Positions 4,718 to 33,046 of a DNA stretch of 64,000 bases are shown here, in pieces (within the stretch, counting starts at the first letter, position 1; the number at the start of each line of letters is the position of its first letter). Source of the stretch: Minisyncoccota bacterium (GTDB lineage Bacteria > Patescibacteriota > Minisyncoccia > RBG-13-40-8-A); NCBI GenBank assembly GCA_035528175.1, contig DATKZC010000025.1, positions 431 through 64,430 on the forward strand, written 5' to 3'. Position numbers and translations under genes: made by a program. The notes beneath the pieces were generated by a model, which was given only the letters and a program-made list of their open reading frames with translations, did not search any database and had not been told where the DNA came from.

Positions 4718-4721
4718 AATA

Positions 4722-5606
4722 TTATATTACCAAAAGACTTAATCCTATACAAATAAAAATGATGGCGATGATTTTTTGAATAAGAACCTCTTTATTAAAC
4801 TGTTCTTTCAAAACCGGAATCTTCTTCAATAATAATAAAGCCAAAATCAAAACAAAAACATACTGTAATCCTTGAAAAGCAATTGTCAGGGTTACGCTTC
4901 CCAAAAATGCTGCTAAATACAAAAACAAACTTCCAGCAACATTAAAAAGCCTGCCGAATATAAAAAATTTTGTTGTTTTTGATTTAACCTGCTTTGTTTC
5001 TGAAAATATAAGCTCTCGATTCTTTTTTGAAAACAATAAAGTCAGAGCTATTAATACTACTCCAACCCTTACCCATATCAGACCGCTGACAAAATTGGTT
5101 CCCAAAAATAAATACTTAGTGATTACCCAAAAAAGCGCAAAGAGAAAGGCCGAAACAATAGATAGCCCCAAAACTCCATTCCTCAAAAAATGTTTTCTTC
5201 TAAACCCTATAACTAGGCATCCTAAAACCAATAATACAAAGGCTATTATTTGTCGAAGAGTCAAAAACTCTTTTATAATAGAAGAACTCAAAATTAAAAC
5301 AAATACTGAACTCACGGCGCCTACAAAAGGCACGACCCTAGAAATTTCTTCTCTGTTCACGGCTTTATAAAAAAGCAAAAAACCGCTAATTTGCGCAACT
5401 CCAGCAACCAAACTCCAGAAAATTTCCGCGCCATTGGGCATTACAAACCCGAATGGAATTAGAACTAAAACAAATATACCTAAAACCCCAACATAGAAAG
5501 AATAAACCACTTGGTGTGGCATCGACCTAGAAAGGATATATTTGTCAAATATAAAGACTAATGCGTAGAAAAACTGGGCTAAAATTACTAATAAAATCCA
5601 ACTCAT
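4722..5606 (-). CDS. DMT/EamA-like 10-TM transporter
   Basis: Entirely hydrophobic with about 10 predicted TM helices in two-halves architecture. No catalytic motifs. Confidence 0.45.
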   Translation of the reverse strand: MSWILLVILAQFFYALVFIFDKYILSRSMPHQVVYSFYVGVLGIFVLVLIPFGFVMPNGAEIFWSLVAGVAQISGFLLFYKAVNREEISRVVPFVGAVSSVFVLILSSSIIKEFLTLRQIIAFVLLVLGCLVIGFRRKHFLRNGVLGLSIVSAFLFALFWVITKYLFLGTNFVSGLIWVRVGVVLIALTLLFSKKNRELIFSETKQVKSKTTKFFIFGRLFNVAGSLFLYLAAFLGSVTLTIAFQGLQYVFVLILALLLLKKIPVLKEQFNKEVLIQKIIAIIFICIGLSLLVI

Positions 5607-6727
5607 AAATTTGTTCCATTATTCTTACAAATTTCCGCGTAAACTCTGCTACTGGGGCGCGGAATTCGTTGAAAGGTTTTGTAATCAATTTCAATCAAGC
5701 CAAAACGTGGCTCAAATCCTTTATCCCACTCAAAATTATCCAATAACGACCAATGGAAATATCCGCGTACATCAACCCCTTCTTCAATTGCCTTATAAAC
5801 CCACTTCAAATGCTCAATAATGAATTTTGTTCGTTTTTCATCCTTGGCATCAGCCAAACCATTTTCCGTAATGTAAATCGGCTTGTTATATTTTTTAAAA
5901 TCTTTTAAAACATGATAAATCCCTTCGGGGTATATTTCCCAACCGATATCTGTTCTCTTTCTATGAGAAAGTTTTAATATCTCAGATAATGAATGGTGAA
6001 AATAATAATTCAGACCAATAAAATCATGATGATTTTCTATTTTATTTAAAAATTTTTGATTCCAGAATGTATTTAAAATTTTTAAAAATCCTTTAAAATG
6101 AGTATAGTTTTGAGCTATGCCAACAAAAGCATCGGGAGAAATTTTGTGAATTAATTCATAAATCTCCTTGTGGGTTATAATCAATTGTTTACAAACTCTG
6201 CGAAATTTAAACCAATTTTTTATAAATGGTGGCCACTTACCTATTAAAAAAGACAGAACGGCATAAACATTGTCTGGCTCATTTAAAGTAATCCAAAATT
6301 TAACCAGGTCTTTATATTCCGAGACAATTTTCCCGACAAATCGCCCGAAATCTTTCGGCGCATCTTCATTCAGCCAACCTCCCTTTTCAACGAACCAAAT
6401 CGGCAAAGTCCAGTGATATAAGGTCATAAACGGCTCCAGCCCCCTTTCTTTAAGTGCCAAAATTACTTTTCTGTAATGCTCAATTTCTTTTTGGTCAAAT
6501 TTTCCTTCCTCGGGTTCGATACGAGCCCATTCGATTGAAAATCTATGGGCATTATTATTCAGTGATTTCGCTAAATCAAAATCTTCTTCAAATTTATGAT
6601 AATGGTCGCAAGCAATACCTGCGTCAAACTTTTTTCCAATCATTGACCAATCATTCTTTATTCCTCCCTCCACTTGATATGCAGATGTAGCTGTACCCCA
6701 ATAAAAATTTTCTGGGAATTTTAACAT
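5603..6727 (-). CDS. Glycoside hydrolase family 1 beta-glucosidase, cytoplasmic
   Basis: FYWGTATSAYQVEGG N-terminal GH1 signature, LNEP acid/base region and ITENG nucleophile motif (YITENGLAD). Confidence 0.85.
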   Translation of the reverse strand: MLKFPENFYWGTATSAYQVEGGIKNDWSMIGKKFDAGIACDHYHKFEEDFDLAKSLNNNAHRFSIEWARIEPEEGKFDQKEIEHYRKVILALKERGLEPFMTLYHWTLPIWFVEKGGWLNEDAPKDFGRFVGKIVSEYKDLVKFWITLNEPDNVYAVLSFLIGKWPPFIKNWFKFRRVCKQLIITHKEIYELIHKISPDAFVGIAQNYTHFKGFLKILNTFWNQKFLNKIENHHDFIGLNYYFHHSLSEILKLSHRKRTDIGWEIYPEGIYHVLKDFKKYNKPIYITENGLADAKDEKRTKFIIEHLKWVYKAIEEGVDVRGYFHWSLLDNFEWDKGFEPRFGLIEIDYKTFQRIPRPSSRVYAEICKNNGTNL

Positions 6728-7887
6728 TACTGCACGATTAAAATATTGTTATAATTCTCGGTCAGCATTTTTTCCGCTTTTTTGGTTTTTACATTTAATC
6801 TCATAATATTAAACATATTCACCTCTTCTCCTTCTGCCCTTTCAAGAAAGTATAAAGAATTACTGGAACCGTCAAATGCCAGCTGGCTGATATAGCTTCC
6901 GGAATATATCTCATTATCCGTTTCCTTATATAAATCAACCAAGTGGATTGTTTCAATTATTTCATTGTTTTTACCCGACTTCTGTTCTGTGTAAAAAAAT
7001 CCTTTTTCTGTATCCAACCAGATTTTGTCACTAATTCTATCTGTGGTTAAAACCGGTTTGTAGTCTCTTTTTTCGAAATCGCCCAAATAAAGTTCGGTAA
7101 TTTCCTTGTTGTTTTTCCTGCTGTAGATCTCATAAAGAAACATTTTGCCGCTTGGCGAAAATTCTATGTTCTGGCAATTAGTCAAATTGGCGTCGCAGCT
7201 TTTTGGAATTATGTATTCTACTTTCTTGGTTTCTATATTTATTCTGCCTAAGCTTTTAATATTCGCGTCAAAAATCCCCTGGAAATAAATATAATCCTCA
7301 TTCCAACGTTTTAATAAAAGCACATTTTCCTCAAATTTTGCTAATAACTGCGGACCTTCGCCATCTGCTATGCTTATCCATAATTCCCTTTTTGTATTAT
7401 TTGTCTCTATTTCTTCATAGGTTGAATCTTTAATTTCTTTAATCCAGGCAATACTATTACTATCCGGAGAAAAAACCAAGCTGGTTGAATCAATCGGTTG
7501 TTCAATTTTCTTTTCTGTGCCGGTTCTTAGATTAACTAGAATCGGATCATAATAAATTCTGCTTGCCACCATGCCATCGCCTAAATCCTCTATTTGTTCC
7601 TCTTTTGACTTTTTAGAATAAATCAATTGGCGCCTGTCCGGCGAAATAAAAGAGTGGCGGGGCGGCTTGTATTTGCCCAAATCAACTTCCTGAGCAGCAA
7701 CTGCGACGATTTTCTCGCCTTCGCCTTTATTATCTAATAAAAACAAATTAGCTTTATTCTCGTTAAGTCGGTAATAAAAAACCCCTTCGCCCAGTTTCGG
7801 GCTAAGAATTTTCCAAAGCAGAATTCCAAGAATAATACCGATTAGAACTGCTATTAAAATAAAGAAAGTTAATCGCTTTCTCTCCAT
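6727..7887 (-). CDS. Membrane-anchored beta-propeller (TolB/PD40-like) protein
   Basis: N-terminal TM anchor, then repeated SPD..IA(W/F) segments (SPDRRQLIY, SPDSNSIAWI, SPSGKMFLY) typical of PD40 blades. Confidence 0.4.
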   Translation of the reverse strand: MERKRLTFFILIAVLIGIILGILLWKILSPKLGEGVFYYRLNENKANLFLLDNKGEGEKIVAVAAQEVDLGKYKPPRHSFISPDRRQLIYSKKSKEEQIEDLGDGMVASRIYYDPILVNLRTGTEKKIEQPIDSTSLVFSPDSNSIAWIKEIKDSTYEEIETNNTKRELWISIADGEGPQLLAKFEENVLLLKRWNEDYIYFQGIFDANIKSLGRINIETKKVEYIIPKSCDANLTNCQNIEFSPSGKMFLYEIYSRKNNKEITELYLGDFEKRDYKPVLTTDRISDKIWLDTEKGFFYTEQKSGKNNEIIETIHLVDLYKETDNEIYSGSYISQLAFDGSSNSLYFLERAEGEEVNMFNIMRLNVKTKKAEKMLTENYNNILIVQ

Positions 7888-7957
7888 GGAATCAATATAT
7901 CACGAAATTAATCAACCTGCAATATTTCTTGACAAGTTCTTCTAAAAGGCCGGCACA

Positions 7958-7987
7958 ACAAAAAAGGGGTGGTCTAGGACCACCCCT
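7958..7987 (-). terminator. Rho-independent terminator for tyrS
   Basis: GGGGTGGTC-TAG-GACCACCCC hairpin at 7966-7986. On the minus strand it is followed by a U-run (A-run 7959-7965 on the plus strand). Confidence 0.6.
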
Positions 7988-8008
7988 ACTTTATTTCTGA
8001 AATCAAAT

Positions 8009-9193
8009 TTATACGATTTTCACAAAAAATCGTTTTCCTTTTTGAATAATACTATTTCGATTAACTATAATGTCAATCGATTTTATTTCTTCGCCGTCAA
8101 TTTCAATCCCGCCCTGTTCAATCAATCTTTTTGCGTCTCCCCTACTCGTTGCTAAATTTGTCTCGACTAAAACATCAACAATATTCTTTCCTGCTAATTT
8201 ATATTCTTGGATTTCATCCGGTAAATCTTTTTTCTGGAAAACCGAGACAAAATATTTTTTGCCATTTTCTGCGCCTTTTTCTCCCCAATATATTTTTACA
8301 ATTTCAAAAGCCAATTCCATCTTAATATCGCGCGGATTTGTTGTTTCCAGTAATAATTGCTTTTCGTATCCTCTGATTTTATCCATATCAATGCGAGTAC
8401 AATGCACAAAATAAGTAATAATCAAATCATCAGAAATGCTCATCACTTTTCCAAACATATCTTCTGGTTTATCTGTAATATTAATTGTGTTTCCCCAACT
8501 TGAGCTCATTTTTCTGCTATCGGTTCCCAGAATCAAATTAGTCATTAAAATGTCCTGCGCTTCTTGTTTGTAATGTTCCTGTAGAGTCCTGCCTGCCAAT
8601 AAATTAAATCTCTGGTCTGTTCCGCCAAGTTCAACATCAACCTTAGTGGCAATACTGTCATAGCCCTGCATTAGAGGATATAATAACTCTCTCAAAGAAA
8701 CGTGCCTTCCTTCTTCTAATCTTTTTCTGATATTCTCTCTGGCAATGAACTCCCCTAATGAAAACTGGTTTGCTAATCTGCCGATTTCACTGAAATTAAG
8801 TTTTTTAAGCCATTTTGAATTATGTTCAATTTTGGCTTTTTTAATATTGATAATCTTTCCTGTCTGCTCAACATAATTTTTCATATTTTTCTTAATCTGC
8901 TCCTCGGAAAGCATCGGCCTTTCGGAGTCCTTGTCAGAAGTATCGCCTACCATGCCCGTAAAGTCGCCTATAACAAAAATAATCTCGTGGCCAAGCTCCT
9001 GAAAGTCCCTCATTTTCAGCAATGTGACTGCTCTACCAATATGGATATTAGGGCTGGTGGGGTCAATTCCAAGCTTTACTCTTAATTTTTTGCCAGACAT
9101 CAATTTCTCACGCAAGTGCTTTAAATCAATCACCTCGCTCACCCCACGGGTCAGTATCTCTTCTATTTTGTTTTCATCAACTTTTATACTCAT
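8009..9193 (-). CDS. tyrS: Tyrosyl-tRNA synthetase
   Basis: GIDPTSPNIHIGR (HIGH-class motif), KMSSS (KMSKS motif) and a C-terminal S4-like RNA-binding domain (RLIEQGGIEIDGEEI). Confidence 0.85.
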   Translation of the reverse strand: MSIKVDENKIEEILTRGVSEVIDLKHLREKLMSGKKLRVKLGIDPTSPNIHIGRAVTLLKMRDFQELGHEIIFVIGDFTGMVGDTSDKDSERPMLSEEQIKKNMKNYVEQTGKIINIKKAKIEHNSKWLKKLNFSEIGRLANQFSLGEFIARENIRKRLEEGRHVSLRELLYPLMQGYDSIATKVDVELGGTDQRFNLLAGRTLQEHYKQEAQDILMTNLILGTDSRKMSSSWGNTINITDKPEDMFGKVMSISDDLIITYFVHCTRIDMDKIRGYEKQLLLETTNPRDIKMELAFEIVKIYWGEKGAENGKKYFVSVFQKKDLPDEIQEYKLAGKNIVDVLVETNLATSRGDAKRLIEQGGIEIDGEEIKSIDIIVNRNSIIQKGKRFFVKIV

Positions 9194-11075: not shown

Positions 11076-13529
11076 TTATTTTAAATTTATCTCTTCTGAT
11101 AAAGCGTCTGCGCCAGGGGCATTGTTCGCTTTAATTTTTGATCTTTCAAAAATTTCTTTATCAACAATTACTTTATCACGTCCGTATTTTATACGCGAAA
11201 GTTCCTTAATTCTTATTGCAATTTGAGAATCGCCCCTTGCCGGTGGATTGCATTTAATATTAAACGGCGTGCTAGTCATGTTATTTATCAATAATTTAAC
11301 ATAAGCATTAAAATTATCAATATTCAACAAATCCTGCGCGCTAAAAACCGGTTCAAATTGTTTTACTAAGAATTCTGCATCGTCAGCTCCAACTCTAAAA
11401 ACGGCCATACTACCAACATTTCCAAATACTGCGTCTTTAATTTTATCCTCCAATTGCCCAATAAATTGATGCGCTATAATTAAATTTAATTTATATTTTC
11501 TCGCTTCAGCTAAAATCGTTGAAATACTATCAGTTGTAAAATTCTGGAATTCGTCAATATAAAGATAAAAATCCGGCCTTTGATCTTCTGGGGTATCTAC
11601 TCTGGAAAAAGCTCCCATTAAAAATTTACCAACAATAATTAAACCCAATAAATAACTATTTAAATCACCCATTTTCCCTTTTGACAAGTTTGCTAAGAAA
11701 ATTTTCTTTTCATTCATTATTTTCCTAAAATCAAAAGCGCTTTTCTGCTGACACAAAATAGGACGCATGATATCGTTTGCTAAAAATATATTTGTTTTGG
11801 AAGTAATATAAGGAACAATATTTGCTAACGAGGCCTCTCCTCCTGCTTTTTCAGCTTCTTTTTCCCAAAAATCTTTAACTACAATATTGTTTGTTTTTGA
11901 AAGCTTATATTTTCTGAATTCCGCATCAACCAACACTTTAGGAACCTCTAAAAGCGTTGCACCTGATTCTGGATCATCCATAACCAATAATAACGCTCCT
12001 CTCATATACTGTTGGAATACCGGACCCATTCCCTCTGGCGCTTCAGGAAAGATTTTTTTGAAAATATTTATCATTTCATTGGCAAGAAAAGTTTTTTGTT
12101 CTGGGAATTTCGGATCATACTCAAGCATGTTTAAACCCATCGGTCTTTCAACGTCACCGGGATTAAAATAAATAACATCTTCCGCTCTTTCTGGAGGAAT
12201 CATGCCCAAAATATCATCAACATCTGAACCATGAGGGTCAATAAAACAAACACCTTTGCCATTCATAATGTCCTGCTTAATCATATTAATCATTAATTTT
12301 GTCTTACCTGTTCCGGTTTGACCAATAACATAAAAATGTCTGCGCCTATCATTTTCAGTCATTCTAATTTCTGTTTCCTCGCCCCTAAAAATATTCTTGC
12401 CGAGTAATACTCCCTCTTTGGAAATATTTATCGGCGGAACCGATTCTTTAGATTTTAACCATTTCATTTTTGGAGAACCAAGCGAAGTCAATGGAAAATG
12501 AAAAATACTTGCCACTTCCTCGCTGTTTAAAATCATTTTTTGCCTTTTACTGAATACTCTGAACGAAAAATAGAAAGAGAGTTTTTTTAAGCCGTTTTTC
12601 TTCATTTTTTCCAATCTTAAAGAATTAAGATTAGGCACGCCGAACTGATAAAAAGAACCTTCCATGTGGGATAAAAGTTCTGCTGACCTTTCCTGTGTAT
12701 TCCCGGAAAACAAGAGCCGAATATTCGCCTCAAATCCGGTTTTTGATATTTTTGATTGCAAAGATTTTATTGTTTCTTGGGCATCTAAAGTCATTTGCGA
12801 CTGGATTTGTGGTTCGCCTTCTTTTGGTTTTTTCGCAATTTTTCCCTTTACAGCATCGATAAAACTCTGCCCTCTATTCATTTTTCTTATAATGGATAAC
12901 CCGAATTTATCCCAGTTTTTCGAAGCTGGTTTTAAAATAATCTGCAATGCCCCACCCTCGCCGGTTTCTTCTATTTTGCTCAATGCAGTGGAAATATTTT
13001 CCAGAGGGTCGATTTCCAATTCTTTGTATGTTTTTATCGGCAAAATACTATTTTTTTCTAATTTTAAAAATCCTCCAGCGCAAGCTCCTTGAGGATTGAA
13101 AATATTGTAATCCTTAACCTTTTGCACGATAGCTTTCGGATAAAACCCGTAAATTTGTTTTTCCAAAAATGTTTCGTATTTTTTGGGAGCTGCCAGATAA
13201 AAAGAAATTTCTGCGCCAGAAAAGGGAACAGCCATTTCTAAAACAATATACGGCTGGCCATAGGAAAACTGAATTCTAGAACCCCTCTCTCTTAAAGACC
13301 CCAAACTTGATAAAAATTGCTCCATCACAGCAATCCTGTTTTTCTTTTCTTCGGCTGACAAATCCTCTTTTGTCTCTCTGGGTATCTTAATTAAAAATAA
13401 ACTCATATTCAGAGCCCTGACAATTAATCCCCTGCCCCTCGATCTTTCAACTAACAAAATAAACGCCAATCCGCCGATTAGAAGCACAATCAGCCCGCTG
13501 ACAATATAAATAAATTGCATTGTCTCCAT
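11076..13529 (-). CDS. Fusion protein: N-terminal membrane-anchored domain plus C-terminal TraD/TraG/VirD4-like type IV coupling-protein P-loop ATPase
   Basis: N-terminal TM, then about 380 aa similar in outline to the separate 429-aa protein at 21704-22993. C-terminal YVIGQTGTGKTK Walker A, FIDPHGSD, YLYIDEFQNF Walker B, and the LIIAHQF...FGNVGSMAVFRVG motif shared with the 513-aa ATPase at 20161-21702. Confidence 0.6.
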   Translation of the reverse strand: METMQFIYIVSGLIVLLIGGLAFILLVERSRGRGLIVRALNMSLFLIKIPRETKEDLSAEEKKNRIAVMEQFLSSLGSLRERGSRIQFSYGQPYIVLEMAVPFSGAEISFYLAAPKKYETFLEKQIYGFYPKAIVQKVKDYNIFNPQGACAGGFLKLEKNSILPIKTYKELEIDPLENISTALSKIEETGEGGALQIILKPASKNWDKFGLSIIRKMNRGQSFIDAVKGKIAKKPKEGEPQIQSQMTLDAQETIKSLQSKISKTGFEANIRLLFSGNTQERSAELLSHMEGSFYQFGVPNLNSLRLEKMKKNGLKKLSFYFSFRVFSKRQKMILNSEEVASIFHFPLTSLGSPKMKWLKSKESVPPINISKEGVLLGKNIFRGEETEIRMTENDRRRHFYVIGQTGTGKTKLMINMIKQDIMNGKGVCFIDPHGSDVDDILGMIPPERAEDVIYFNPGDVERPMGLNMLEYDPKFPEQKTFLANEMINIFKKIFPEAPEGMGPVFQQYMRGALLLVMDDPESGATLLEVPKVLVDAEFRKYKLSKTNNIVVKDFWEKEAEKAGGEASLANIVPYITSKTNIFLANDIMRPILCQQKSAFDFRKIMNEKKIFLANLSKGKMGDLNSYLLGLIIVGKFLMGAFSRVDTPEDQRPDFYLYIDEFQNFTTDSISTILAEARKYKLNLIIAHQFIGQLEDKIKDAVFGNVGSMAVFRVGADDAEFLVKQFEPVFSAQDLLNIDNFNAYVKLLINNMTSTPFNIKCNPPARGDSQIAIRIKELSRIKYGRDKVIVDKEIFERSKIKANNAPGADALSEEINLK

Positions 13530-19296: not shown

Positions 19297-19689
19297 TTAT
19301 TCTTTTTCCTCCTCTACTACTTTGTCCTCTCGATTAGAAGCAAAAATATATGCTTCATGAACCAAGGAACCATTAATCTGTGTATCCTCTGATATTTTGG
19401 TTTCGGATTTAAAGTCTAATAACGCTTGTATTATATGATCTTCTTTTCGAAAAATCCCAATTCGTGCTATGGATTTTCTTTCTTCTGAATCAAGATGACC
19501 ATCTAATAATCCTTTCGTAAATTTAAATATTTCTCCTCTATTTGCTTCTGTAGCCCAAGAAGCACATAATATAACCGTCCATTTGTCTGTTAATTCATCT
19601 ATTTTCATAATCGCAAATAAAACAACATCACCTTTTGAGGCTTTAATCTCGGATAATATCTTCTGAAATTTTTCTGTTATATTTCCCAT
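19297..19689 (-). CDS. Unknown 130-aa protein, downstream partner of the HEPN-like gene, ending in an acidic tail
   Basis: 13-bp overlap with the upstream gene. No GS...DxD nucleotidyltransferase motif. C-terminal EDKVVEEEKE. Confidence 0.35.
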   Translation of the reverse strand: MGNITEKFQKILSEIKASKGDVVLFAIMKIDELTDKWTVILCASWATEANRGEIFKFTKGLLDGHLDSEERKSIARIGIFRKEDHIIQALLDFKSETKISEDTQINGSLVHEAYIFASNREDKVVEEEKE

Positions 19690-20117
19690 TGTTTTTTTAT
19701 ACGATTAATTAAATTTTTAAGATTATTATGCACCCTAGCTGTTTTAATCTCATCCCAACCAGGATCTAAAGTATATCTTAATGTAGGCCAATTTCCATGA
19801 AACTCCTGTGTGAATCCTGACCAATCTTCATATAACTCTCCATCGTAGCCCAAAACATCTACCATACCGGATAATATTAATAAGGTTTCAAATTCGTGAG
19901 CTCTAAAAAAGGTAGGTATTTTTTCAGACGAAAAATTTTTTTGAGGACAATCTGGATAATCAGATAAGTGAAGAGTTTTACAAATAACTGCCTTTAGAGC
20001 ACATTCTAATGCATAGCCCATCATATATGCAGCCATGCCCCAATCCTTTGCAGATATAAGTGTATTAATTGTCGTTAATCGAGCATCTGTAATATTGCGA
20101 AGATCTTGTGATGTCAT
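19677..20117 (-). CDS. HEPN-like domain protein
   Basis: AKDWGMAAYMMGYALECALKAVI resembles the first HEPN helix (A..EkalKA). Later FRAHEFETLLIL (H.L..L) and NWPTLRYTLDP (R-Y-x-x-P C-terminal HEPN signature). By-eye assignment only. Confidence 0.45.
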   Translation of the reverse strand: MTSQDLRNITDARLTTINTLISAKDWGMAAYMMGYALECALKAVICKTLHLSDYPDCPQKNFSSEKIPTFFRAHEFETLLILSGMVDVLGYDGELYEDWSGFTQEFHGNWPTLRYTLDPGWDEIKTARVHNNLKNLINRIKKQWEI

Positions 20118-20160: not shown

Positions 20161-21702
20161 CTACTTTTTTTTGTCTTCCCCTACTGCTTTTTTGATTGCT
20201 TCACGAATGCCAACAAGGTCAATTTCCGGCTTTTGTTTTTTAATCGGCTGAGATTGAGTATTTGGTTTTTTCTCTCTTTCTTTTTGTAAACAGGACGAAC
20301 AATAAACCGGCCTTACTCCATCTGGTTTAAAAGCAACTTTGGTTTTTTTGCCGCAATCAGAACAAACTGCCTCAAATTTTTTCGCTTCTTCTTCTGTTTC
20401 TGCCACTTCACTCCATCTAGCAATTTTTTCTTCCACTGCTTTTCGCGATATGGTATATCTTTCGCGGGAGAGTTTAATAATTTTATCCTCAAAAGATTTT
20501 TTAGGAACCGTAGATGGAGCCATGGTCTGAGCGCTGAAAGCCCGAGAAGCAACACCATCAATCATTAGTTTTAAATAAATAGTATACTTTGTTAAATTGA
20601 CTAAATCATCGGCAATAAATACTGGCAGAAATTCCCTTTCCAAAAACTCGGCATCATCTGCGCCAACACGGAAAGTAATCAGAGTTCCGACATTGCCGAA
20701 AATCGCATCTCTTACTTTAGTATTTTTGCCTTTATCGCCCATAGAATCTAATTGAGCAACATATTGATGGGCTAAAGTCAGACAGAGATGATATTTTCTG
20801 GCCTCAGAAAGAATGCTCGCAAATGCGTCTGTGGCAAAAGTTTGGAATTCATCAACATAAAGATAAAAATCTTTTCTTTCGTGTTCAAGCACATCCACCC
20901 TACTCATAGCCGCAAGTTGTAATTTGGTTATTACCAAAGCTCCCAACAACTGACTGGCGTCCTCACCAACTCTACCTTTTGAAAGATTGACAATTAAAAT
21001 CTTCCCTTGGTCCATTATCTCCCGCATATCAATTGACGACTTAACTTGTCCGATAATATTCCTGATTAAGGGAGTAGAAATAAATTGCCCGACCTTATTT
21101 TGAATCGGCGCTACTGCTTCTTCCCTGAATCGGTCAGGATATTTGGCAAATTCATTTGTCCAAAACGCTTTTACGCTGGGATCAGTAACCTTTTCCAGAA
21201 CTTTTTGGCGATAATCCTTGTCAGCTAAAAGACGATTAACACCCAAAAGAGTTGAGCCGGGATATTCCAGTAATGATAAAATCGCATTTCTTAAAATATA
21301 TTCCATCCTTGCGCTCCAAACATCAGGCCAGATTTTCTTAAATACGCCCATTAAACCAGAAACAACCAAATGACGGTATTCTGGCTCAACATTCTCCATA
21401 ATATTAAAAGTAATAGGATATTCCAAATCAGCAGGATTGAAATAAATTATATCATTCACCCTGTTAGACGGAACAAAATCAAGCATTGTTTCCGCAAAAT
21501 CTCCATGCGGATCAACAATTGCTACGCCATGCCCATTTTGGATATCTTGAATTGCCATATTTTTCAGAAGTTCTGATTTCCCTGTACCGGTTTTACCAAC
21601 GACATAGACATGCTGGCGCCTGTCTTTTGTTTTTATGCCAAATTTTGTCCGTTTGTTGCGGAAATTTGTTTCGCCTAAAATTGTTATTTCGTTTTCAATC
21701 AT
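20161..21702 (-). CDS. TraD/TraG/VirD4-like P-loop ATPase with a C-terminal zinc ribbon, stand-alone
   Basis: YVVGKTGTGKSE Walker A, VDPHGDF, YLYVDEFQTF Walker B, TLAHQY...FGNVGTLITFRVGADDAEFL. The C-terminal CSDCGKKTKVAFKPDGVRPVYCSSC is a CxxC-x17-CxxC ribbon. Confidence 0.6.
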   Translation of the reverse strand: MIENEITILGETNFRNKRTKFGIKTKDRRQHVYVVGKTGTGKSELLKNMAIQDIQNGHGVAIVDPHGDFAETMLDFVPSNRVNDIIYFNPADLEYPITFNIMENVEPEYRHLVVSGLMGVFKKIWPDVWSARMEYILRNAILSLLEYPGSTLLGVNRLLADKDYRQKVLEKVTDPSVKAFWTNEFAKYPDRFREEAVAPIQNKVGQFISTPLIRNIIGQVKSSIDMREIMDQGKILIVNLSKGRVGEDASQLLGALVITKLQLAAMSRVDVLEHERKDFYLYVDEFQTFATDAFASILSEARKYHLCLTLAHQYVAQLDSMGDKGKNTKVRDAIFGNVGTLITFRVGADDAEFLEREFLPVFIADDLVNLTKYTIYLKLMIDGVASRAFSAQTMAPSTVPKKSFEDKIIKLSRERYTISRKAVEEKIARWSEVAETEEEAKKFEAVCSDCGKKTKVAFKPDGVRPVYCSSCLQKEREKKPNTQSQPIKKQKPEIDLVGIREAIKKAVGEDKKK

Positions 21703-21703
21703 A

Positions 21704-22993
21704 TTATTGGACTATAGGAAGCTCGCTGGGCGGTCCGCCTTTCTTGGCTTCAATCTTAGATAATCTTTCAGCTTCAACAAACTTCCCAGGAAGATGGAAA
21801 ATTGTTGCCAGTTCCTCAATATTAAAAACAAATCCCCTAGTTTTGAGCTTATGAAACGGAAAAAATCTTTTCTTGAAAATACCCACAAAAAATCTTCTCT
21901 GTCCCGGCTCTCTTTTTCTTTTAAAGATTTTCCCCCTTCCAGGAGTGGATTTTTTATTGATTTTAAAACCATTTAGATTTTGGGTATTAAATTGTCTGAA
22001 AAATCCAGCTACTACTGTTGGCTTGTCCTTGGAAAAAAGATCTTTAGGCGCCCAATACATAAATCTTATCATTGTTTTAAATCCTATTTTTCCAATATTC
22101 CTTTCAATTGCCAAAACAACTTCTTTCTGACCTGGGGTTAAAAACGGCATAACTTTTTCGACTTTCTTTTCCCCGCCAACAGCACCCTCCTCGCCCCCCA
22201 AGCCAAAAAATCTTGCAATACCCTGACCCAACGCTTCAAGCCAGCTTCTAGCTTCTTCCACTATCATTAATCCTTTCTTGCTTTCTTTTACTTCTTTGCC
22301 AATTATATTTCCAACCAAATTTTCCCCATCTTTTATCCATTGTTTATCGGTAACTGGACTGATTGGGCTGATTAAGATATGAATGGCAATGCTTTCTTTC
22401 GGATTCAAGCTGCTTAAAAATTCAAAAAGTCCGGCAATGGGGTCAGTTCTTTCTTCTGCTTCTTTTTCCTCAAAAAACACCGGATAAGTCCTAATAGGAT
22501 AAGCATCCTGCTTGGTTAAAATCAATTCTGTGCCCCAGGCATCAAAATCCGCGGTCGGAGTGCCGGGCGGAATACTGTTTATATAATCCTCCGCATCTAT
22601 TATTTCTGCTTGTGGGTATTGGGCGTAAAGATGTGATTCAACAAGATTTCTGTATTTTGCTTCGGTTCTGATATAAAAATGGATCTCCCCGCCATGCCCA
22701 AGCATTTCAATGCTAAACCATGGAGGAAGGTCGCCTTTTATATATTTCTCTTTAAATTTTCTCCCCTTTTCAGCAGCGTGCAAGCCAGCAAAAAACTGCT
22801 CCATGGCTTTCGGCGTTTTAATTAGATCTCTAGGAAATTTTACTTCCAAAATAATCCATTCCAAACCTCGTATATATTTAACAATAAGATAATTCACCCA
22901 GAGATGCTTTAAGAATAAAAAAAGAGCTATTGGTGCGATAATCCACCAATAACTCACAAATATATCCCTATAAATATTAAGGATTTCAGTCAT
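21704..22993 (-). CDS. Membrane-anchored partner protein of the TraD/VirD4-like ATPase
   Basis: N-terminal TM pair, then a soluble domain with the same outline as the N-terminal 380 aa of the fused 817-aa protein (EVKFPRD / LIKIPRET, HFYIRTEAKY / SFYLAAPKKY). A 1-bp gap separates it from the ATPase gene. Confidence 0.5.
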   Translation of the reverse strand: MTEILNIYRDIFVSYWWIIAPIALFLFLKHLWVNYLIVKYIRGLEWIILEVKFPRDLIKTPKAMEQFFAGLHAAEKGRKFKEKYIKGDLPPWFSIEMLGHGGEIHFYIRTEAKYRNLVESHLYAQYPQAEIIDAEDYINSIPPGTPTADFDAWGTELILTKQDAYPIRTYPVFFEEKEAEERTDPIAGLFEFLSSLNPKESIAIHILISPISPVTDKQWIKDGENLVGNIIGKEVKESKKGLMIVEEARSWLEALGQGIARFFGLGGEEGAVGGEKKVEKVMPFLTPGQKEVVLAIERNIGKIGFKTMIRFMYWAPKDLFSKDKPTVVAGFFRQFNTQNLNGFKINKKSTPGRGKIFKRKREPGQRRFFVGIFKKRFFPFHKLKTRGFVFNIEELATIFHLPGKFVEAERLSKIEAKKGGPPSELPIVQ

Positions 22994-23025: not shown

Positions 23026-24066
23026 TTAAGCTAAAATATATTTTCCATTTTCCAATCTCTTTACTTTTGGAGATCGGTGAAGGTTCAAAATGATTGTATT
23101 TGGCCTCACCTGCCGTTTTGCCAGAACAGAATCAATAATTTCTTTCCTGGTTAACGGTTTTTTGTTTTCAACTAAAGTCTTTTGAATCACTTCCTCCACT
23201 GTTCCCGATTCATAACCCCAATCAGTAAGAGCATAGGTTCCTCTTCCTACTAAAATAAATCTTGGGTCTTTTATTAATTCATTATGAACAGTCTGAGTAT
23301 AAGCCGGCTTATCTACGAATATCTTATTTATCAACTCAGTAATAGCAGTAAAATGGCGAGGTTCGCCTTCTTTTTTAAGGATTAAATAGGCGCGGTCTTT
23401 TACTCCCTGCGGAGAAATCTCCGGCCAATAATTTAAACCAATTTCTCCGAAAATATTTTTGTTAATTTCTCTAGAGATTTCCAAAACAACAGAAAACATT
23501 TTTGGGGGAATATTGGAATGCTTCCTGGAAAGTAAATCAAAAACTTCTGATTCATGAAAAACTTTATCGTGCTTCTTAAAATGGTCAATTAAAAAATCAA
23601 TAATTTCCTTGGCTTTCTGACGGGCAGATTTGTGAGCAACCCAGTAAGGATGGAATTTTTCATCTCTGGCTATTCTTTCGAACGGCTCGCCCAATGTCAA
23701 TGCTAAATAAATATAACCCCTTGAAGTATGGGGTTCGGTTGTTCCAGTTGCAGCATGATACAAATAATTCTCCCCCATAATATGGCCGTGCGCGAAAAAT
23801 AAATCATTCAAATAATCGAAAGCTGCCTCAAAAAATGGCAGAACTTTTTCTGATTTAAGAATTTTTATCCCATTTTCTTCTAATTGCCTAACTCTTTCCC
23901 TGGTTATACCATGGTTTTGGCCAATAGCTTCCAGGGTTTCGCTTTTACCGTTCTTTAACCCAAATCGACGCTCAATAACCTCTCTGACCCTCGGGTTGCT
24001 CAAATATAAAAGCGCCTTTTCTATTTTTTTAGAAATATCTTTAGAAATTGTTGATTTCTTGTTCAT
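23026..24066 (-). CDS. Two-domain DNA-binding protein: sigma-70 region 4 HTH plus a C-terminal HARE-HTH-like winged helix
   Basis: N-terminal VREVIERRFGLKNGKSETLEAIGQNHGITRERVRQLEENGIKILK is a textbook sigma-70 region 4.2. The C-terminal FILVGRGTYALTDWGY matches the HARE-HTH GRG.Y.L..W pattern. No sigma region 2 or 3. Confidence 0.5.
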   Translation of the reverse strand: MNKKSTISKDISKKIEKALLYLSNPRVREVIERRFGLKNGKSETLEAIGQNHGITRERVRQLEENGIKILKSEKVLPFFEAAFDYLNDLFFAHGHIMGENYLYHAATGTTEPHTSRGYIYLALTLGEPFERIARDEKFHPYWVAHKSARQKAKEIIDFLIDHFKKHDKVFHESEVFDLLSRKHSNIPPKMFSVVLEISREINKNIFGEIGLNYWPEISPQGVKDRAYLILKKEGEPRHFTAITELINKIFVDKPAYTQTVHNELIKDPRFILVGRGTYALTDWGYESGTVEEVIQKTLVENKKPLTRKEIIDSVLAKRQVRPNTIILNLHRSPKVKRLENGKYILA

Positions 24067-27641: not shown

Positions 27642-27756
27642 TTCGTGTCAGCGTAGGACAATGTCCGAATAACGAGGCGTGCGTGAGACGCCTACAAGAG
27701 ATAAAATCTCGGAGACTGACCCTTCAGCCAGTTATTAAAACGCTGGCTTTTTTTTA
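27642..27756 (+). ncRNA. Candidate small structured RNA with its own promoter and intrinsic terminator
   Basis: TTGACA (27606-27611), 17-nt spacer, TAATAT (27629-27634). About 115 nt with nested hairpins: GUCAG...CUGAC closing stem, GGAC-AAU-GUCC, AGGCGU-GCGUGAG-ACGCCU and GAGAU-AAA-AUCUC. It ends in an AGCCAG-N11-CUGGCU hairpin plus U8 (27726-27756). No plus-strand ORF follows. Confidence 0.35.
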
Positions 27757-30255
27757 TTTCCCATGACACTTCTTATATTTCTTACCTGAACCGCACGGAC
27801 AGGGATCGTTGCGGCCAATATGTTTTGTTTGTTGGCTACCTTGCTGGCGTTGCGGGCGGGTTAATTCTACTTTCAACAACATCTCAACAATCGCATTATC
27901 AATTTCTTCCAGCATGTGCTTGAATAAACGATGACCTTCGTTTTTATATTCAACCAATGGGTCGCGCTGTCCATAGGCGCGCAAACGCACGCTCTCGCGT
28001 AAACATTCCATTGTTTCCAAGTGTTCCATCCAAAGCATATCAATTGAACGTAATGATACAAATTTTTCCAATCCCGCTCTCTCATTTTCAGGAACATCCC
28101 CGCCCAAACCTTCGGATTGTGGCGGGCCTGCCTGTTTGCGCTCCGCGCTTACGGCGGATTTCTCAAATTTATTACAATATTGCTTATACTCGTCTTCTGT
28201 CATTAATTCCTTAATTTTTTGATGCATCTCTTTATCTGTTGCTTCGAATAAAATTTCTTTTCTCATTTTATAAATCGTTTCCCTGTGCTTATTCATCACC
28301 TCGTCATATTCCAAAACATGATTCCTAATATCAAAATTATATCCTTCAATTTTTGCCTGCGCTTTTTCAATCGCCGATGAAATCATTTTATTTTCAATCG
28401 GCTGATCCTCGGGAATTTTTAAAGCATCCATCAGGGTTTTAATCCTCTCTGAACCGAATCTCTGCATCAATTCATCTTCCAATGAAACAAAAAATTCGGT
28501 AGAACCAGGATCGCCTTGCCTACCGGATCTTCCTCTTAATTGATTGTCAATTCTTCTTGCTTCATGGCGTTCAGTACCAAGAACATGAAGCCCTCCGGAT
28601 TCACAAACTCTTCGACTCTGTTCGGGGTCTTGGGGATTACCTCCCAAAACAATATCAACTCCACGACCTGCCATGTTGGTTGCAACCGTCACGGCTCCTA
28701 ATCTTCCTGCCTGGGCAATAATCGCGCCTTCCCCCTCGTGCTGTTTAGCATTTAAAATTTCGCATTGTATTCCCTCTATTTTTAAGAGCATTCCCAAGTA
28801 CTCGTTTTTTTCAATAGAAATCGTGCCTATCAAAACTGGCTGGCCTTTTTTATGGCGTTCTTTTATTTCCTGAACAATCGCTTTAAATTTCCCCTGCTCG
28901 GTTTTGTAAATCTTGTCTGGCAAATCTTTCCTAATCATCGGCTTATTAGTCGGCACAACTATAGTGTCCAACTTATAAACCTTATCAAACTCTTCAGCAT
29001 TGGTTAATGCAGTTCCTGTCATTCCAGCTAATTTGTTATACATCCTAAAAAGATTCTGGAAAGTAATTGTTGCCAAAGTTTTCGATTCCTTCTGCACTTG
29101 TACATTTTCTTTTGCTTCCAATGCCTGATGCAACCCGCCGGAATAACGCCTGCCAGGCATCAGCCTGCCGGTGAATTCATCAACAATAATTACTTCCCCA
29201 TTTTTAACTACATAATCTTTATCTCTTTTGAATAAAACTTCTGCGCGTAAAGCTTGCTCCAAATGATGCACTAATTGGATTCCGGCTTCATCATAAATAT
29301 TCCCAACTCCCAAAACTTTTTCCACTTTATCCATACCCTCATTAGTTAAAGTAGCTGCGCGCATTTTTTCATCAATTTTAAAATCAATATCCCTTTTTAA
29401 TTGCGAAGCGATTTTGGAAAATTTCTTGTAAAGCTGGGCTGATTCCACATCCGGAGCGGAAATAATCAAAGGAGTTCTGGCTTCATCTATTAGAATACTA
29501 TCTACTTCATCAACAATTGCATAATTAAAAACTCTTTGCGCCATATTATCCTTATCATAAGCCATATTGTCCCGCAAATAATCAAATCCGAATTCATTAT
29601 TTGTTCCATATAAAATATCACAATTATAAGATTCTTTTCTCGAGATCGGTTTTAAAAAATCATCAATTACCTTAAATCCGCCCAATTTATCACGTTCCTC
29701 GTCTAATTTTAATTCCGGCTTGCCCGCCGAAGCCTTGGCAAAGGCGGGATCGTAAATATAAGAAGTTTCATGGTTTATACATCCAACGCTCAATCCAAGA
29801 AAATTATATATTTGCCCCATCCACACTGCATCTCTCCTTGCCAAATAATCATTAACTGTGATTAAATGCGCTCCTTTGCCTTCCAAGGCGTTTAAATATA
29901 ATGGCAGGGTTGCAGACAAGGTTTTGCCTTCTCCTGTTTTCATTTCAGCAATCATTCCTTGGTGTAAAATTATTCCGCCCATAAGCTGAACATCAAAATG
30001 CCTTTGATTTAATGTTCTCTTGGCTGCTTCTCTAATTAAGGCAAATGCTTCTGGCAAAATATCATCCAAGGTCTCTGACCTTGCCCCGAGCGCAGTCGAG
30101 GGGTTTAATCTATTCTTAAATTCAGAAGTTTTTTGTTTTAATTCCTCATTTGAAATAAGCTCGAATTGAGATTCAAGCTTATTTATTTCATCAACAATCA
30201 ACTGGATTTTATTCAAATACCTTTTATTCGGGTCTCCGAATAATTTCTCAAACAT
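27754..30255 (-). CDS. secA: Preprotein translocase ATPase SecA
   Basis: DEAD-like motor motifs ([37 protein letters not shown]) and a C-terminal zinc finger [14 protein letters not shown]. Confidence 0.9.
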
Positions 30256-30256
30256 T

Positions 30257-32044
30257 TTATAATGTCGTTTTATCTTCTCCTTTTGGATACCAGTCCAATT
30301 CTGATTTGTTAATTATAAATATTGATTCCGGTTTTCCGCCTTGAGATAGAAAGTTCTCGCCGGTTATGTTTAACCAACTTAAAATTCCTGTATCCTCGCC
30401 GGATATTTCCAGTTTATAAACTTTGTCTTCGCTTACGTACCTATAATAATTAGATGTCTTGAACGCGTCTCTTACTTCCGGACTAACGGTTTTAACTGCT
30501 TTCCATCCGCCAGTCAAATGGCCGTACATATTAAAGATAGCAGGATTAAGAAATAATCTTTTGTAGCCATATTGGCTAATGATGAAAATATCAAAATCAC
30601 CAACTGCCCTGATTAAATCTCCTTCTTTTAATCCAAAATCTTCTGGCTTGGGCAATTCTTCTCCAGGTGGCTCAACCGGCTCATCAAAAAGATCCGTAAA
30701 TGCGGAAAGAATAAAAGGATTTGTCGGTTCATTGTTTTGAAAATCGCTTTTCTTAAATTGATTAGAGATAGCAATCGTAACTGAATCAACTCTTGTTTTG
30801 AAATCAGGTATTTTCAGGATTCCGCTTTGATTTTCTAAGGTTAATTTTCCAACCACTGTCTGCTGATCTATATAATCAACAATATAATAAACATTAAAAT
30901 CACCCTGTCCCATAAAACCTTCAAACTCAATTTCCAAATCTTTAGCAATAGTGCTTGCATCCTGTTTATTAACAAAACGATACCAATATGGCGACCAATC
31001 TTTTACCTGCTGCGCAATATTAATTACGTTTGCTGATACGATGCTGTAAGTAATTGGTGAAATCTGGACATTTCCTTTCAAATACGGATTTTTGTAGCCG
31101 TATATGCCGCTATAAATTGATTTGTCATTCAGATAATTAGCAATTGCCCAATTATTAAATATCTGAGAAAAAGTAGAACTATATCCTTTTTCTCTTAACG
31201 CCTGTTCAATGCTGTAGATTCCAACTTTATTGTTTTTTATCATTAAAGAAAAAATATCTTCTCCGAACTGCTCAGCCAGATAATGGCCCAAAAGATTCAC
31301 TGATGGATAATCATACCTGTCGCCTTTCCACTCGGTCAGAGAATCTGATGGTTGAAAAAGAAAATCTTCAACGCGCCTTTCTAAGTTGCTTCCTACGTAA
31401 TCGCTATCCAATCCAGCTACTGTTGAAGCGTATTCACTCCTTAATTCATTAAGCCAAATATCTTCTTGGACATTATTAAGTCTTTGTTTTTGATTCCAAT
31501 TAATCATATGCTGCAATTCATGAGCAATCAAACCGTGAACTAAACTAGTGCCAACCTGGCTGACATTAATATAAATCATTTCTCTGTTATTGGAAGTGGG
31601 TTCCTGTAAGCTGGCGACTTCATCTCTTTCATTAAAATATCCTCCTGCTGTCTTTTTTAACTGTGTGAGGAGAATTGTAATTCTTTCATCGTTATCAATT
31701 CCAGGATTCCATTCCGAGCCAAAAATATATCTCAAAGAAGGATATGTTTTCTCATTAAATTGGACAGCAATGTCATCTAGTCCATCAAGAAAAGAACCTT
31801 GCTGGACCAAAGACAATTCTTGCCAAAATGGATCTTCAACATAAAAATAAGCATTAGCAGAAACCTTTTGCAAGGTAGCTGCTATTTTTGTTCTTGTTTC
31901 ATAATCAAAAGATGAATCAACAAAAAATTCACTGCTATCGCCGACTTCAAAAACAGCAAAAACAGAACAACTGCAAATAATAAAAATCCCGCCTGAAACC
32001 AGCAGGATTGATAAAAATTTATTTTTTCTTAAAAGGGAAATCAT
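30257..32044 (-). CDS. Secreted putative zinc metalloprotease (HExxH) with a C-terminal beta-rich domain
   Basis: Start moved to the internal M ([23 protein letters not shown] signal anchor). [14 protein letters not shown] HExxH motif. The track's 75-codon N-terminal extension runs through a GC-rich structured intergenic region and was rejected. Confidence 0.45.
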
Positions 32045-32317
32045 AAAAATTTTGCGTTGCCAAAGGAGCCGGGAAAGTAAAACCCCAATACTTGGTATTA
32101 AATGGGTACTAGTTCCCGGACTCCTCAAGCAACACAATCTATAGTTTAAGTATAGCTGATACGAATAATGTGTGTCAAACCCCTCGACTTCGCTCGGGGT
32201 AAAAAGAAAAACGTCGACTAAAAGCCAGACGTTTTTCCCCAAGTATAGAGTTTTCCCTTGCGGGATCACCCATTCAACTGTTTATATACTAGCAGGTAAA
32301 AAATTCGTTGTCAAGCA

Positions 32318-33046
32318 CTAGTAAGAAAATTCGGCGTCTATGATAATATCCTTGTCAAATTCCTGACATCCAAGAGCGAAAATTTTAAACATTGGAGAGA
32401 TATCGGCTCCGTCTAAAAATTCCAGAGATTTGTTTTCGCTGAGTTTCAGTTCAATCAAAACCTCAAATTCCAAAAATGTTTCTCTGTCATAAGGATAAAT
32501 ATCACCCAAAGGATAATCAGAGAGTTCTATGAGCATATATTCTGTACCACCTAATTTTATTTCCTGCTCATAACCGTTCACCACTAAAGTCATTTTAGAG
32601 ACATATGATTTTTCCAAAGCATAAACCTTGTCTTCTCTGATGCTTAATTTATCGCTAAAAAAATATAACCAAAGTTTACGGATATCTAAAATTGTATTAA
32701 CGGGATTTTTAATTTTGTATTTACCTAAACTAATAGTATTAGATTCGCCATTTTTAGATATTGCCCAAATTTTATCTGGTTCTTTTGTTGTTGTCGGCTC
32801 AATGGTTGCCGGGCTTGCGCAGCCATATTTGGAGAAATCCGTAATTACTTCAGAGCGCCTAAGATTATCTTTAAGAGAAATTGGTTTTGGCTTATATTCT
32901 TCCGAAGTTGAATTATTTGGTGGATTTGGGTCGTCTCCTGGTTTCTGATAATCAAGATAGATGAAAATTACTGCAACAACTACAGCTAAAATAACGGGCG
33001 CAATTATAGCCCAGTTGATTTTTTTGCTTTTATTTGTATCTTCCAT
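32318..33046 (-). CDS. Membrane-anchored extracytoplasmic protein of unknown function
   Basis: N-terminal TM, a Pro-rich linker (DDPNPPNNSTSEEYKPKP) and a beta-rich domain. Confidence 0.35.
   Translation of the reverse strand: MEDTNKSKKINWAIIAPVILAVVVAVIFIYLDYQKPGDDPNPPNNSTSEEYKPKPISLKDNLRRSEVITDFSKYGCASPATIEPTTTKEPDKIWAISKNGESNTISLGKYKIKNPVNTILDIRKLWLYFFSDKLSIREDKVYALEKSYVSKMTLVVNGYEQEIKLGGTEYMLIELSDYPLGDIYPYDRETFLEFEVLIELKLSENKSLEFLDGADISPMFKIFALGCQEFDKDIIIDAEFSY

Follow-up and report, generated by a model that had tools for sequence, protein, structure and literature searches.

A zinc finger-bearing tail on a split, coupling protein-like ATPase of Patescibacteria: a possible substrate-recruiting appendage

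A stand-alone P-loop ATPase of 513 amino acids (aa), similar to the type IV coupling proteins VirD4, TrwB and TraD, is encoded on the minus strand (20161-21702) of a 64,000-nucleotide stretch of the Minisyncoccota contig DATKZC010000025.1, which was analysed as a whole and is referred to here as the window. The protein ends in a CxxC-x17-CxxC zinc finger, and such a finger is absent from a second, fused copy of the same module in the window. Judged by profile matches and a predicted structure, the finger belongs to a catalogued family of about 37 residues (PF23477/TIGR04272) and probably adopts a treble clef-like fold rather than that of a classical ribbon. We tentatively favour, with somewhat less than even confidence, the view that the tail that carries the finger is a substrate-recruiting appendage, probably nucleic acid-binding, on a domesticated coupling motor. 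The finger domain and its presence on this ATPase are already in public annotation: an identical protein is listed at NCBI as 'CxxC-x17-CxxC domain-containing protein [Candidatus Paceibacterota bacterium]', and the NCBI and JGI names of the ATPase and its homologues have been taken from the finger domain. The value of the observation therefore lies in its context and not in the motif.

The C-terminal tail of the ATPase reads ...FEAVCSDCGKKTKVAFKPDGVRPVYCSSCLQKEREKK... and includes the finger CSDC-GKKTKVAFKPDGVRPVY-CSSC, in which C447 and C450 are separated from C468 and C471 by exactly 17 residues. The corresponding codons (nucleotides (nt) 20362-20364, 20353-20355, 20299-20301 and 20290-20292, respectively) all lie within the stretch (about 20290-20385) in which a preliminary description of the sequence had located the motif, and the pattern occurs only once across the six reading frames of the whole window. 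The finger (residues 442-476; 20275-20379, minus strand) matches Pfam PF23477 (zf_Tbcl_2) with an E-value of 8.3e-15 and 54.7 bits (cut-off 27), and NCBIfam TIGR04272, the CxxC-x17-CxxC domain, with 54.7 bits (cut-off 36). The match to the Pfam model zinc_ribbon_6 reached 16.2 bits against a cut-off of 27.

Pfam describes PF23477 as a probable treble clef zinc finger, and the AlphaFold2 model of the ATPase agrees with that description. In the model, C447 and C450 sit on a hairpin (443-446/453-456), and C468 and C471 are found at the start of a helix (469-477), the knuckle on a hairpin and a second ligand pair at a helix N-terminus being the arrangement of a treble clef. In the two-hairpin zinc ribbons of the TFIIB/TFIIS type each Cys pair is instead carried by a beta-hairpin knuckle of a three-stranded sheet. 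The earlier designation as a classic 4-Cys ribbon is therefore to be amended in its topology, while the four-Cys module itself is genuine and conserved. The region was modelled as folded and not as disordered, with a predicted local distance difference test score (pLDDT) of about 75, the mean for the whole ATPase model being 71.

The finger is flanked by elements of different character. On its N-terminal side the two last helices of the ATPase core (residues 405-439; 20386-20490, minus strand) were predicted at 405-416 and 420-439; they are the last element common to the fused paralogue, the BLASTP alignment with which stops at residue 433 and thus before the finger, in line with the earlier remark that the fused copy ends without it. 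Residues 432-441, which join the finger to the core, were modelled with low confidence. On the C-terminal side a Lys-rich linker (residues 477-494; 20221-20274, minus strand), delimited by composition and pLDDT and predicted to be disordered from 479 to 494 (pLDDT <50), leads to a terminal amphipathic helix, EIDLVGIREAIKKA (residues 495-508; 20179-20220, minus strand; helix 496-507 in the AlphaFold2 model). In the whole extension (residues 434-513) 17 Lys and 3 Arg stand against 4 Asp and 10 Glu, and the resulting net charge of +6 bears out its description as a basic, Lys-rich tail; for the finger with its flanks the mean net charge is +3.6.

The identity of the motor itself was assessed by Pfam, Foldseek and hydropathy. 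A motif scan and alignment placed the Walker A sequence GKTGTGKS at residues 36-43 (21574-21597, minus strand) and the Walker B sequence YLYVDEF at residues 280-286 (20845-20865, minus strand). G36, G39, G41 and K42 are invariant in an alignment of 45 orthologues, as are D284 and E285 of Walker B, and Walker A is present in 120 of 120 homologues. Pfam matches were obtained with TrwB_AAD_bind, DUF87, TraG-D_C and T4SS-DNA_transf. In Foldseek the AlphaFold2 model matched DotL, Cag-beta and TrwB best (E ~1e-10), with HerA and the C-terminal domain of VirB4 ranking behind these among the fold matches in the PDB; the ATPase half of the module is therefore nearer to the coupling proteins than to VirB4. 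With TrwB of R388, VirD4, TraD of the F plasmid, DotL and Cag-beta the ATPase shares a P-loop domain in which both Walker motifs are intact and into which an all-alpha domain is inserted.

In other respects the ATPase differs from the type IV coupling proteins. It lacks an N-terminal transmembrane domain within its own polypeptide (not a single 19-residue window reached a Kyte-Doolittle value of 1.6), and it remains far under the equivalog cut-offs of the NCBIfam TraD/VirD4 models (SXT_TraD, TraD_Ftype, conju_CD1115 and others), the best score being 50.2 bits against a threshold of 366. Moreover, the gene is chromosomal, it is located among housekeeping genes with no second, VirB4-type ATPase nearby, and it encodes a zinc finger that is absent from the best plasmid homologues. 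A variable C-terminal extension that serves in recruitment is a known theme among type IV coupling proteins.

The missing membrane domain is encoded separately. Directly upstream of the ATPase gene, with one base between its stop codon and the ATPase start codon, lies the gene of a 429-aa partner (21704-22993, minus strand), an N-domain of family PF26449 in which a soluble alpha/beta domain follows a single hydrophobic anchor at the N-terminus. The anchor was predicted at residues 10-38 (22880-22966, minus strand) from hydropathy and from a long N-terminal helix in the AlphaFold2 model. According to the hydropathy scan it is the only membrane anchor within the split pair. In the fused paralogue of 817 aa (11076-13529, minus strand) the same parts are found in one chain, namely an anchor (hydrophobic segment at residues 1-32), PF26449 (1-366) and the coupling protein-like ATPase (369-799), without a finger. 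That these are split and fused copies of one module had been recognised before and was borne out: the 513-aa ATPase aligns with residues 369-799 of the fused protein at 40% identity (BLASTP, E = 1e-109), the partner aligns with residues 16-366 (E = 9e-23), and the partner profile matches residues 44-375 (E = 4.5e-28). No other protein in the window matches the ATPase or PF26449 profiles. PF26449 was found in 120 of 120 partner homologues; these calls are precomputed Pfam matches of the homologues, and the partner in the window was placed by homology.

The fused copy, which lacks the Cys motif, extends for about 18 residues beyond the last helix that the two copies share. Its best 120 homologues (793-900 aa) all combine PF26449 with the ATPase and none carries the motif, so that the reported absence of the finger from the fused paralogue applies to its orthologues as well. 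Since the Cys residues are kept in the orthologues of the split ATPase, and the finger is found in 0 of 120 fused ones, the two copies are, by these comparisons, two distinct, anciently diverged orthologous groups, of which the split one is marked by the finger. The link between split and finger goes back to one ancient event, a duplication, and not to repeated co-evolution. The hit lists of both paralogues have at least 11 'longest contig' values in common, which indicates that the two are often located on the same contig, as they are in the window.

The AlphaFold2 model of PF26449 resembles the N-terminal domain of VirB4 at the level of the fold only. A kinship with the VirB4 N-domain at the level of the sequence was considered and rejected: hhalign against TrwK (the VirB4 of R388) and TcpF aligned only the Walker A region (probabilities 14% and 5%), Pfam CagE_TrbE_VirB gave no match to 44 family members even at E-values up to 10, and a PDB profile search reached TrwB and DotL solely via the ATPase half.

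Relatives of the complete module were found on plasmids, in conjugation loci or a conjugation-like cluster. A tblastn search of plasmids with the fused protein yielded 589 records, 56 of which cover at least 80% of the query, the N-domain included; with the split ATPase as query 785 records were obtained, and the 15 best matches all end by residue 427. On the Peribacillus plasmid NZ_CP068052 an 870-aa 'DUF87' protein matches the profile of the Candidate Phyla Radiation (CPR) proteins over 630 columns that span both the N-domain and the ATPase (hhalign probability 99.95%, E = 6e-38). Its gene adjoins a replication-relaxation gene, TcpE, conjugal transfer genes and a lytic transglycosylase, and an open reading frame (ORF) across the origin of the record is TcpF/VirB4-like (NCBIfam 836 bits, E = 3e-251, under the model cut-off of 1,100). 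The layout is the same on the B. subtilis plasmid NZ_CP032854. In Haloterrigena pHTS138 separate, neighbouring genes encode the N-domain and the ATPase, beside a conjugal transfer gene. The Tcp-type plasmids of the Bacillota thus have a fused and the haloarchaeal plasmid a split version, mirroring the two copies in the window. On the strength of the hhalign match, the Tcp and conjugal neighbours and the split Haloterrigena pair, the N-domain and ATPase module is the coupling protein-like gene of these conjugation loci. The plasmid genes differ from the CPR copies in their location, in sequence (~24-28% identity) and in the absence of a CxxC-x17-CxxC finger. The CPR copies are chromosomal relatives of the plasmid module, to which the CPR lineage has added the finger.

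The plasmid homologue nearest to the ATPase core is a separate case. It was found on the Sulfitobacter plasmid NZ_CP081110 (locus L085, 6983-8170; 42% identity) as a 395-aa orphan that has neither an N-domain partner nor a finger; the gene is surrounded by recombinase and transposase genes, and the plasmid was typed as non-mobilizable.

The finger is strongly conserved. Among the best 120 homologues of the ATPase (63-100% identical, 508-608 aa) PF23477 is present in all, and the motif, with all four Cys residues and a 17-residue spacer, occurs just once per protein. In the alignment of 45 orthologues C447, C450, C468 and C471 are invariant together with F458, P460 and P465, and R464, V466 and Y467 are kept in at least 90% of the sequences, so that an inner signature F-x-P...R-P-V-Y accompanies the metal ligands. 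To cover a wider range, a scan of one genome per species was made. It gave at least 599 matching species, of which 80 loci were kept, spanning the Portnoy-, Nealson-, Falkow-, Uhr-, Moran-, Magasanik-, Buchanan-, Wolfe-, Nomura-, Doudna-, Lipton- and Niyogibacteria and others; three further loci bring the set to 83. The complete four-Cys motif was found in 66 of these, across many CPR lineages, with two motifs at one locus. The four Cys residues, whose conservation in orthologues had been named as a check, are thus kept in all close homologues and in most of the wider set. It is extremely improbable that the Cys pattern arose by chance or is the functionless relic of a decaying domain. Such a view would draw on the lineages in which the motif is lost or degraded, but the profile match (E 8e-15) lies above curated cut-offs, the family has 6,466 representatives, and the Cys residues are invariant across orthologues that are 52-95% identical; by the conservation data it is effectively refuted.

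The exceptions among the 83 loci are of two kinds. Variants with three Cys residues or of a Cys3-His type occur at six loci (L020, L032, L035, L056, L061 and L076). In L032, L061 and L076, which belong to the Niyogibacteria, and in L056 the last CxxC has become CxxH (YCPEH, YCKQH, YCKAH, CKEH), and the sequences of these orthologues suggest a Cys3-His metal site and not a loss of the site. The motif is lost at about eight loci (L034, L044, L062, L063, L064, L069, L070 and L079), and three could not be scored, the tail being masked or off the contig end (L027, L041 and L051). The orthologues without a finger retain basic, Arg/Lys-rich tails. A motif +KEVDxxxL+xxLxxxL recurs in the tails, finger-less ones included, and the terminal helix of the ATPase in the window is a variant of it; longer tails also bear ISLxEA..PVSF and a terminal ..ILKPGxxIKFD motif.

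The distribution of split genes bears on the idea that finger and tail offset the gene split by tethering the ATPase to its PF26449 partner or to the membrane. The finger-bearing ATPases are indeed unfused (no N-terminal fusion was found at any of the 83 loci, nor among the 120 proteins of 508-608 aa), fused orthologues with a finger number 0 of 120, and the ATPase has no hydrophobic segment of its own. The partner gene is located upstream of the ATPase gene at 65 of the 83 loci and is adjacent in nearly all of these, with a median gap of 26 nt. Yet six of the finger-less orthologues (L034, L062, L063, L064, L069 and L079) are still split with the partner directly upstream, and the haloarchaeal plasmid version is split without a finger, which weakens the tethering idea. 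The correlation of split and finger, moreover, goes back to the one ancient duplication, and from its sequence the terminal helix contains Asp and Glu, unlike typical membrane-targeting helices. We therefore consider a tether quite improbable, and compensation for the split was discarded as the principal explanation of the finger on account of the finger-less orthologues that remain split.

Where finger and ATPase are not fused, they may still be neighbours. At locus L070 (region 5935-8464) the ATPase lacks the finger, and a separate gene of 109 aa, located about 180 nt downstream (8135-8464), encodes a pair of zf_Tbcl_2 fingers with a Gly/Arg-rich linker between them; finger and ATPase are thus linked even when unfused. 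In a Nomurabacteria-like subclade, in which the PF26449 partner is not adjacent and DnaK is found upstream instead, the ATPase gene adjoins genes for Cys-rich proteins of 557-593 aa (L065, 8269-9942; L048, 9764-13189; L077, 8137-9822). These contain several CxxC pairs and match the finger weakly at either terminus or at both. Locus L048 (Paceibacterota) further contains a third coupling protein-like paralogue of 513 aa (3568-5106), about 0.9 kb upstream of the finger-bearing ATPase.

Beyond the ATPases the finger is widespread. Its profile retrieved 6,466 cluster representatives among 1.84 billion proteins, and the best-scoring of these are small proteins (80-360 aa) with two to five tandem fingers, no other domain, and RGG- or Arg-rich linkers. 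A tblastn search of phage genomes with a five-finger protein gave no match. Two small Methanosarcina mazei proteins of the PF23477/TIGR04272 family were shown to bind zinc by inductively coupled plasma mass spectrometry (PMC12704099). These proteins, the tandem-finger protein P0361 and others share the domain family of the ATPase finger, but differ from the ATPase in that they are stand-alone proteins of one to five fingers without an ATPase. Literature searches turned up no paper that describes an architecture of coupling-protein ATPase and zinc finger.

This occurrence as a free-standing domain is relevant to a further explanation, according to which the finger binds no ligand of its own and its zinc site is structural or regulatory, the finger acting as an autoinhibitory lid, an aid to oligomerisation or a sensor of redox state or zinc. 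The conserved four-Cys site would suit such a role, the low-confidence linker 432-441 could let the finger fold back onto the core, and the title of a PDB entry describes the coupling protein Cag-beta as regulated by CagZ. The presence of the finger in two to five tandem copies in small, enzyme-less proteins argues instead for an autonomous binding module, and in L070 the fingers are encoded as a separate protein. We regard a purely structural or regulatory site as unlikely.

In conjugative systems substrates are recruited by relaxosome proteins and by C-terminal extensions of the coupling protein, which bind substrates or adaptors: TraD binds TraM, and the extension of DotL is a platform for adaptors. 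By analogy, we propose a recruiting role for the tail of the split ATPase. The ATPase and its PF26449 partner would form a membrane-tethered ring motor, from which finger, basic tail and terminal helix would project into the cytoplasm as a recruitment appendage. The appendage would bind either the substrate itself, most probably a nucleic acid or a different polyanion, or an adaptor to which the substrate is bound, and in this way it may give the split paralogue a specificity beyond that of the finger-less fused one. That the tail binds a polyanion is hinted at by the net charges, by the RGG/Arg-rich linkers of the stand-alone finger proteins and by the basic tails of the finger-less orthologues.

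The same tail could also serve in protein docking, finger and terminal helix together forming a module that binds an adaptor, a zinc-finger protein or the product of the neighbouring gene with sigma-70 region 4 and HARE-HTH domains. The C-terminal tails of TraD and DotL bind proteins, and the tail motifs (ISLxEA..PVSF, +KEVDxxxL+xxLxxxL and ..ILKPGxxIKFD) are short conserved linear motifs within disorder, as is typical of docking peptides. Possible binding partners are at hand in the Cys-rich proteins with weak finger matches that adjoin the ATPase in one subclade, and in the sigma-70 region 4/HARE-HTH gene, which is syntenic at most loci. The RGG/Arg-rich linkers of the stand-alone finger proteins, on the other hand, point more to nucleic acid, and a synteny that includes the SecA, SecD and SecF housekeeping block may reflect conserved gene order only. 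We expect a docking module to be somewhat unlikely.

Several observations weigh against a nucleic acid-recruiting tail. The finger is dispensable in some settings, as about eight lineages have lost it and six carry the three-Cys or Cys3-His-type variants. The tail is moderately positive in net charge, and its terminal helix, which is rich in acidic as well as basic residues, fits protein docking equally well. No informative partner domain was found in a Pfam scan of the best 150 of the 6,466 finger representatives, in which zf_Tbcl_2 and zinc-ribbon models of a generic kind were the only matches. Searched by sequence with the finger profile, the PDB yielded spurious matches to WD40 'VAFSPDG' repeats and a weak one to Nop10 (E = 0.15), and hence no solved relative of the finger. 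No relaxase, virB4 or DNA-processing gene is linked to the module, although no search aimed at relaxases was made. Finally, the coupling-protein homologue of Ca. Southlakia epibionticum was reported not to be essential for epibiotic growth (PMC12102498).

On the minus strand of the window the module follows SecA (27754-30255), a TIM-barrel gene of the AP-endonuclease-2 family, SecD, SecF and the sigma-70 region 4/HARE-HTH gene, in that order, and the ATPase gene is followed by two small genes without a family and by the lysyl- and seryl-tRNA synthetase genes. The order SecA, SecD, SecF, sigma-70 region 4/HARE-HTH, partner and ATPase is the same at an orthologous locus at which the ATPase is 66% identical. 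The sigma-70 region 4/HARE-HTH gene is located immediately upstream of the partner gene at most of the 83 loci, and SecF and SecD are found upstream at many. The split module is vertically inherited and chromosomal, and is not a mobile element. The sigma-70 region 4/HARE-HTH gene (23026-24066, minus strand) encodes 346 aa, with sigma-70 region 4 at residues 5-74 and a HARE-HTH domain, similar to that of the RNA polymerase delta subunit, at 222-284, as identified with Pfam and NCBIfam. It is possibly co-transcribed with the module, and it is uncertain whether it belongs to it. The best promoter-like consensus match of the region is located just upstream of this gene, which is weak evidence, and the promoter scan as a whole did not rise above background (31 sites against 28.8 in shuffled sequences). 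Terminator-like sites numbered 14 against 6.6 in shuffled sequences, none of them just after the ATPase gene. With the promoter scan at background and no terminator at that point, the operon structure follows from gene spacing only.

The two small ORFs directly downstream of the ATPase gene (19297-20117, minus strand), of 146 aa (19677-20117) and 130 aa (19297-19689), overlap by 13 nt. In Pfam and NCBIfam the former has only a faint HEPN match (E = 0.035) and the latter no significant family match. Both are missing at the orthologous locus L001, where the gene next after the ATPase is that of phosphoglycerate kinase; an inserted pair of the toxin-antitoxin or a defence-like type is a possible interpretation. 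Two ORFs of 670 and 242 aa (30257-33046, minus strand), situated between SecA and a PsbP-like gene, have no match in Pfam or NCBIfam. Apart from the two paralogues, the ORFs of at least 600 aa in the window are SecA, a Wzy/TPR protein and one without a family match. At about 35900 a divergent junction (35876/35957) separates minus-strand from plus-strand genes, and the sign of the GC skew changes near 36 kb. A replication origin at that position was considered and rejected: the flanking genes encode the Wzy/TPR protein, a sugar transferase, an M28-like peptidase and a radical-SAM enzyme, and are not dnaA or dnaN.

A survey of 2025 counted 5,713 VirD4-like coupling-protein homologues in 2,918 patescibacterial genomes, only 148 of which are near virB4, and its authors considered that these orphan homologues may have been exapted to other roles (PMC12102498). 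The chromosomal module described here, with no link to virB4, fits this count of orphans, and the window suggests that the roughly two homologues per genome are one fused and one split paralogue of the N-domain and ATPase module. The two-paralogue structure, the relationship to Tcp-type plasmids and the resemblance of the N-domain to VirB4 at the level of the fold are the new context. In a more speculative and, in our estimate, unlikely extension, the Patescibacteria domesticated a monoderm conjugative coupling protein, which became two ancient chromosomal paralogues with no link to virB4 or relaxases, and the finger and basic tail of the split paralogue capture nucleic acid directly. The split paralogue would then be a motor that translocates DNA or RNA across the CPR membrane independently of a relaxase. 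If this were true, nucleic acids could enter or leave these auxotrophic epibionts through such a motor. The tail of 80 residues offers a concrete handle on the substrate of an abundant motor in a poorly annotated phylum.

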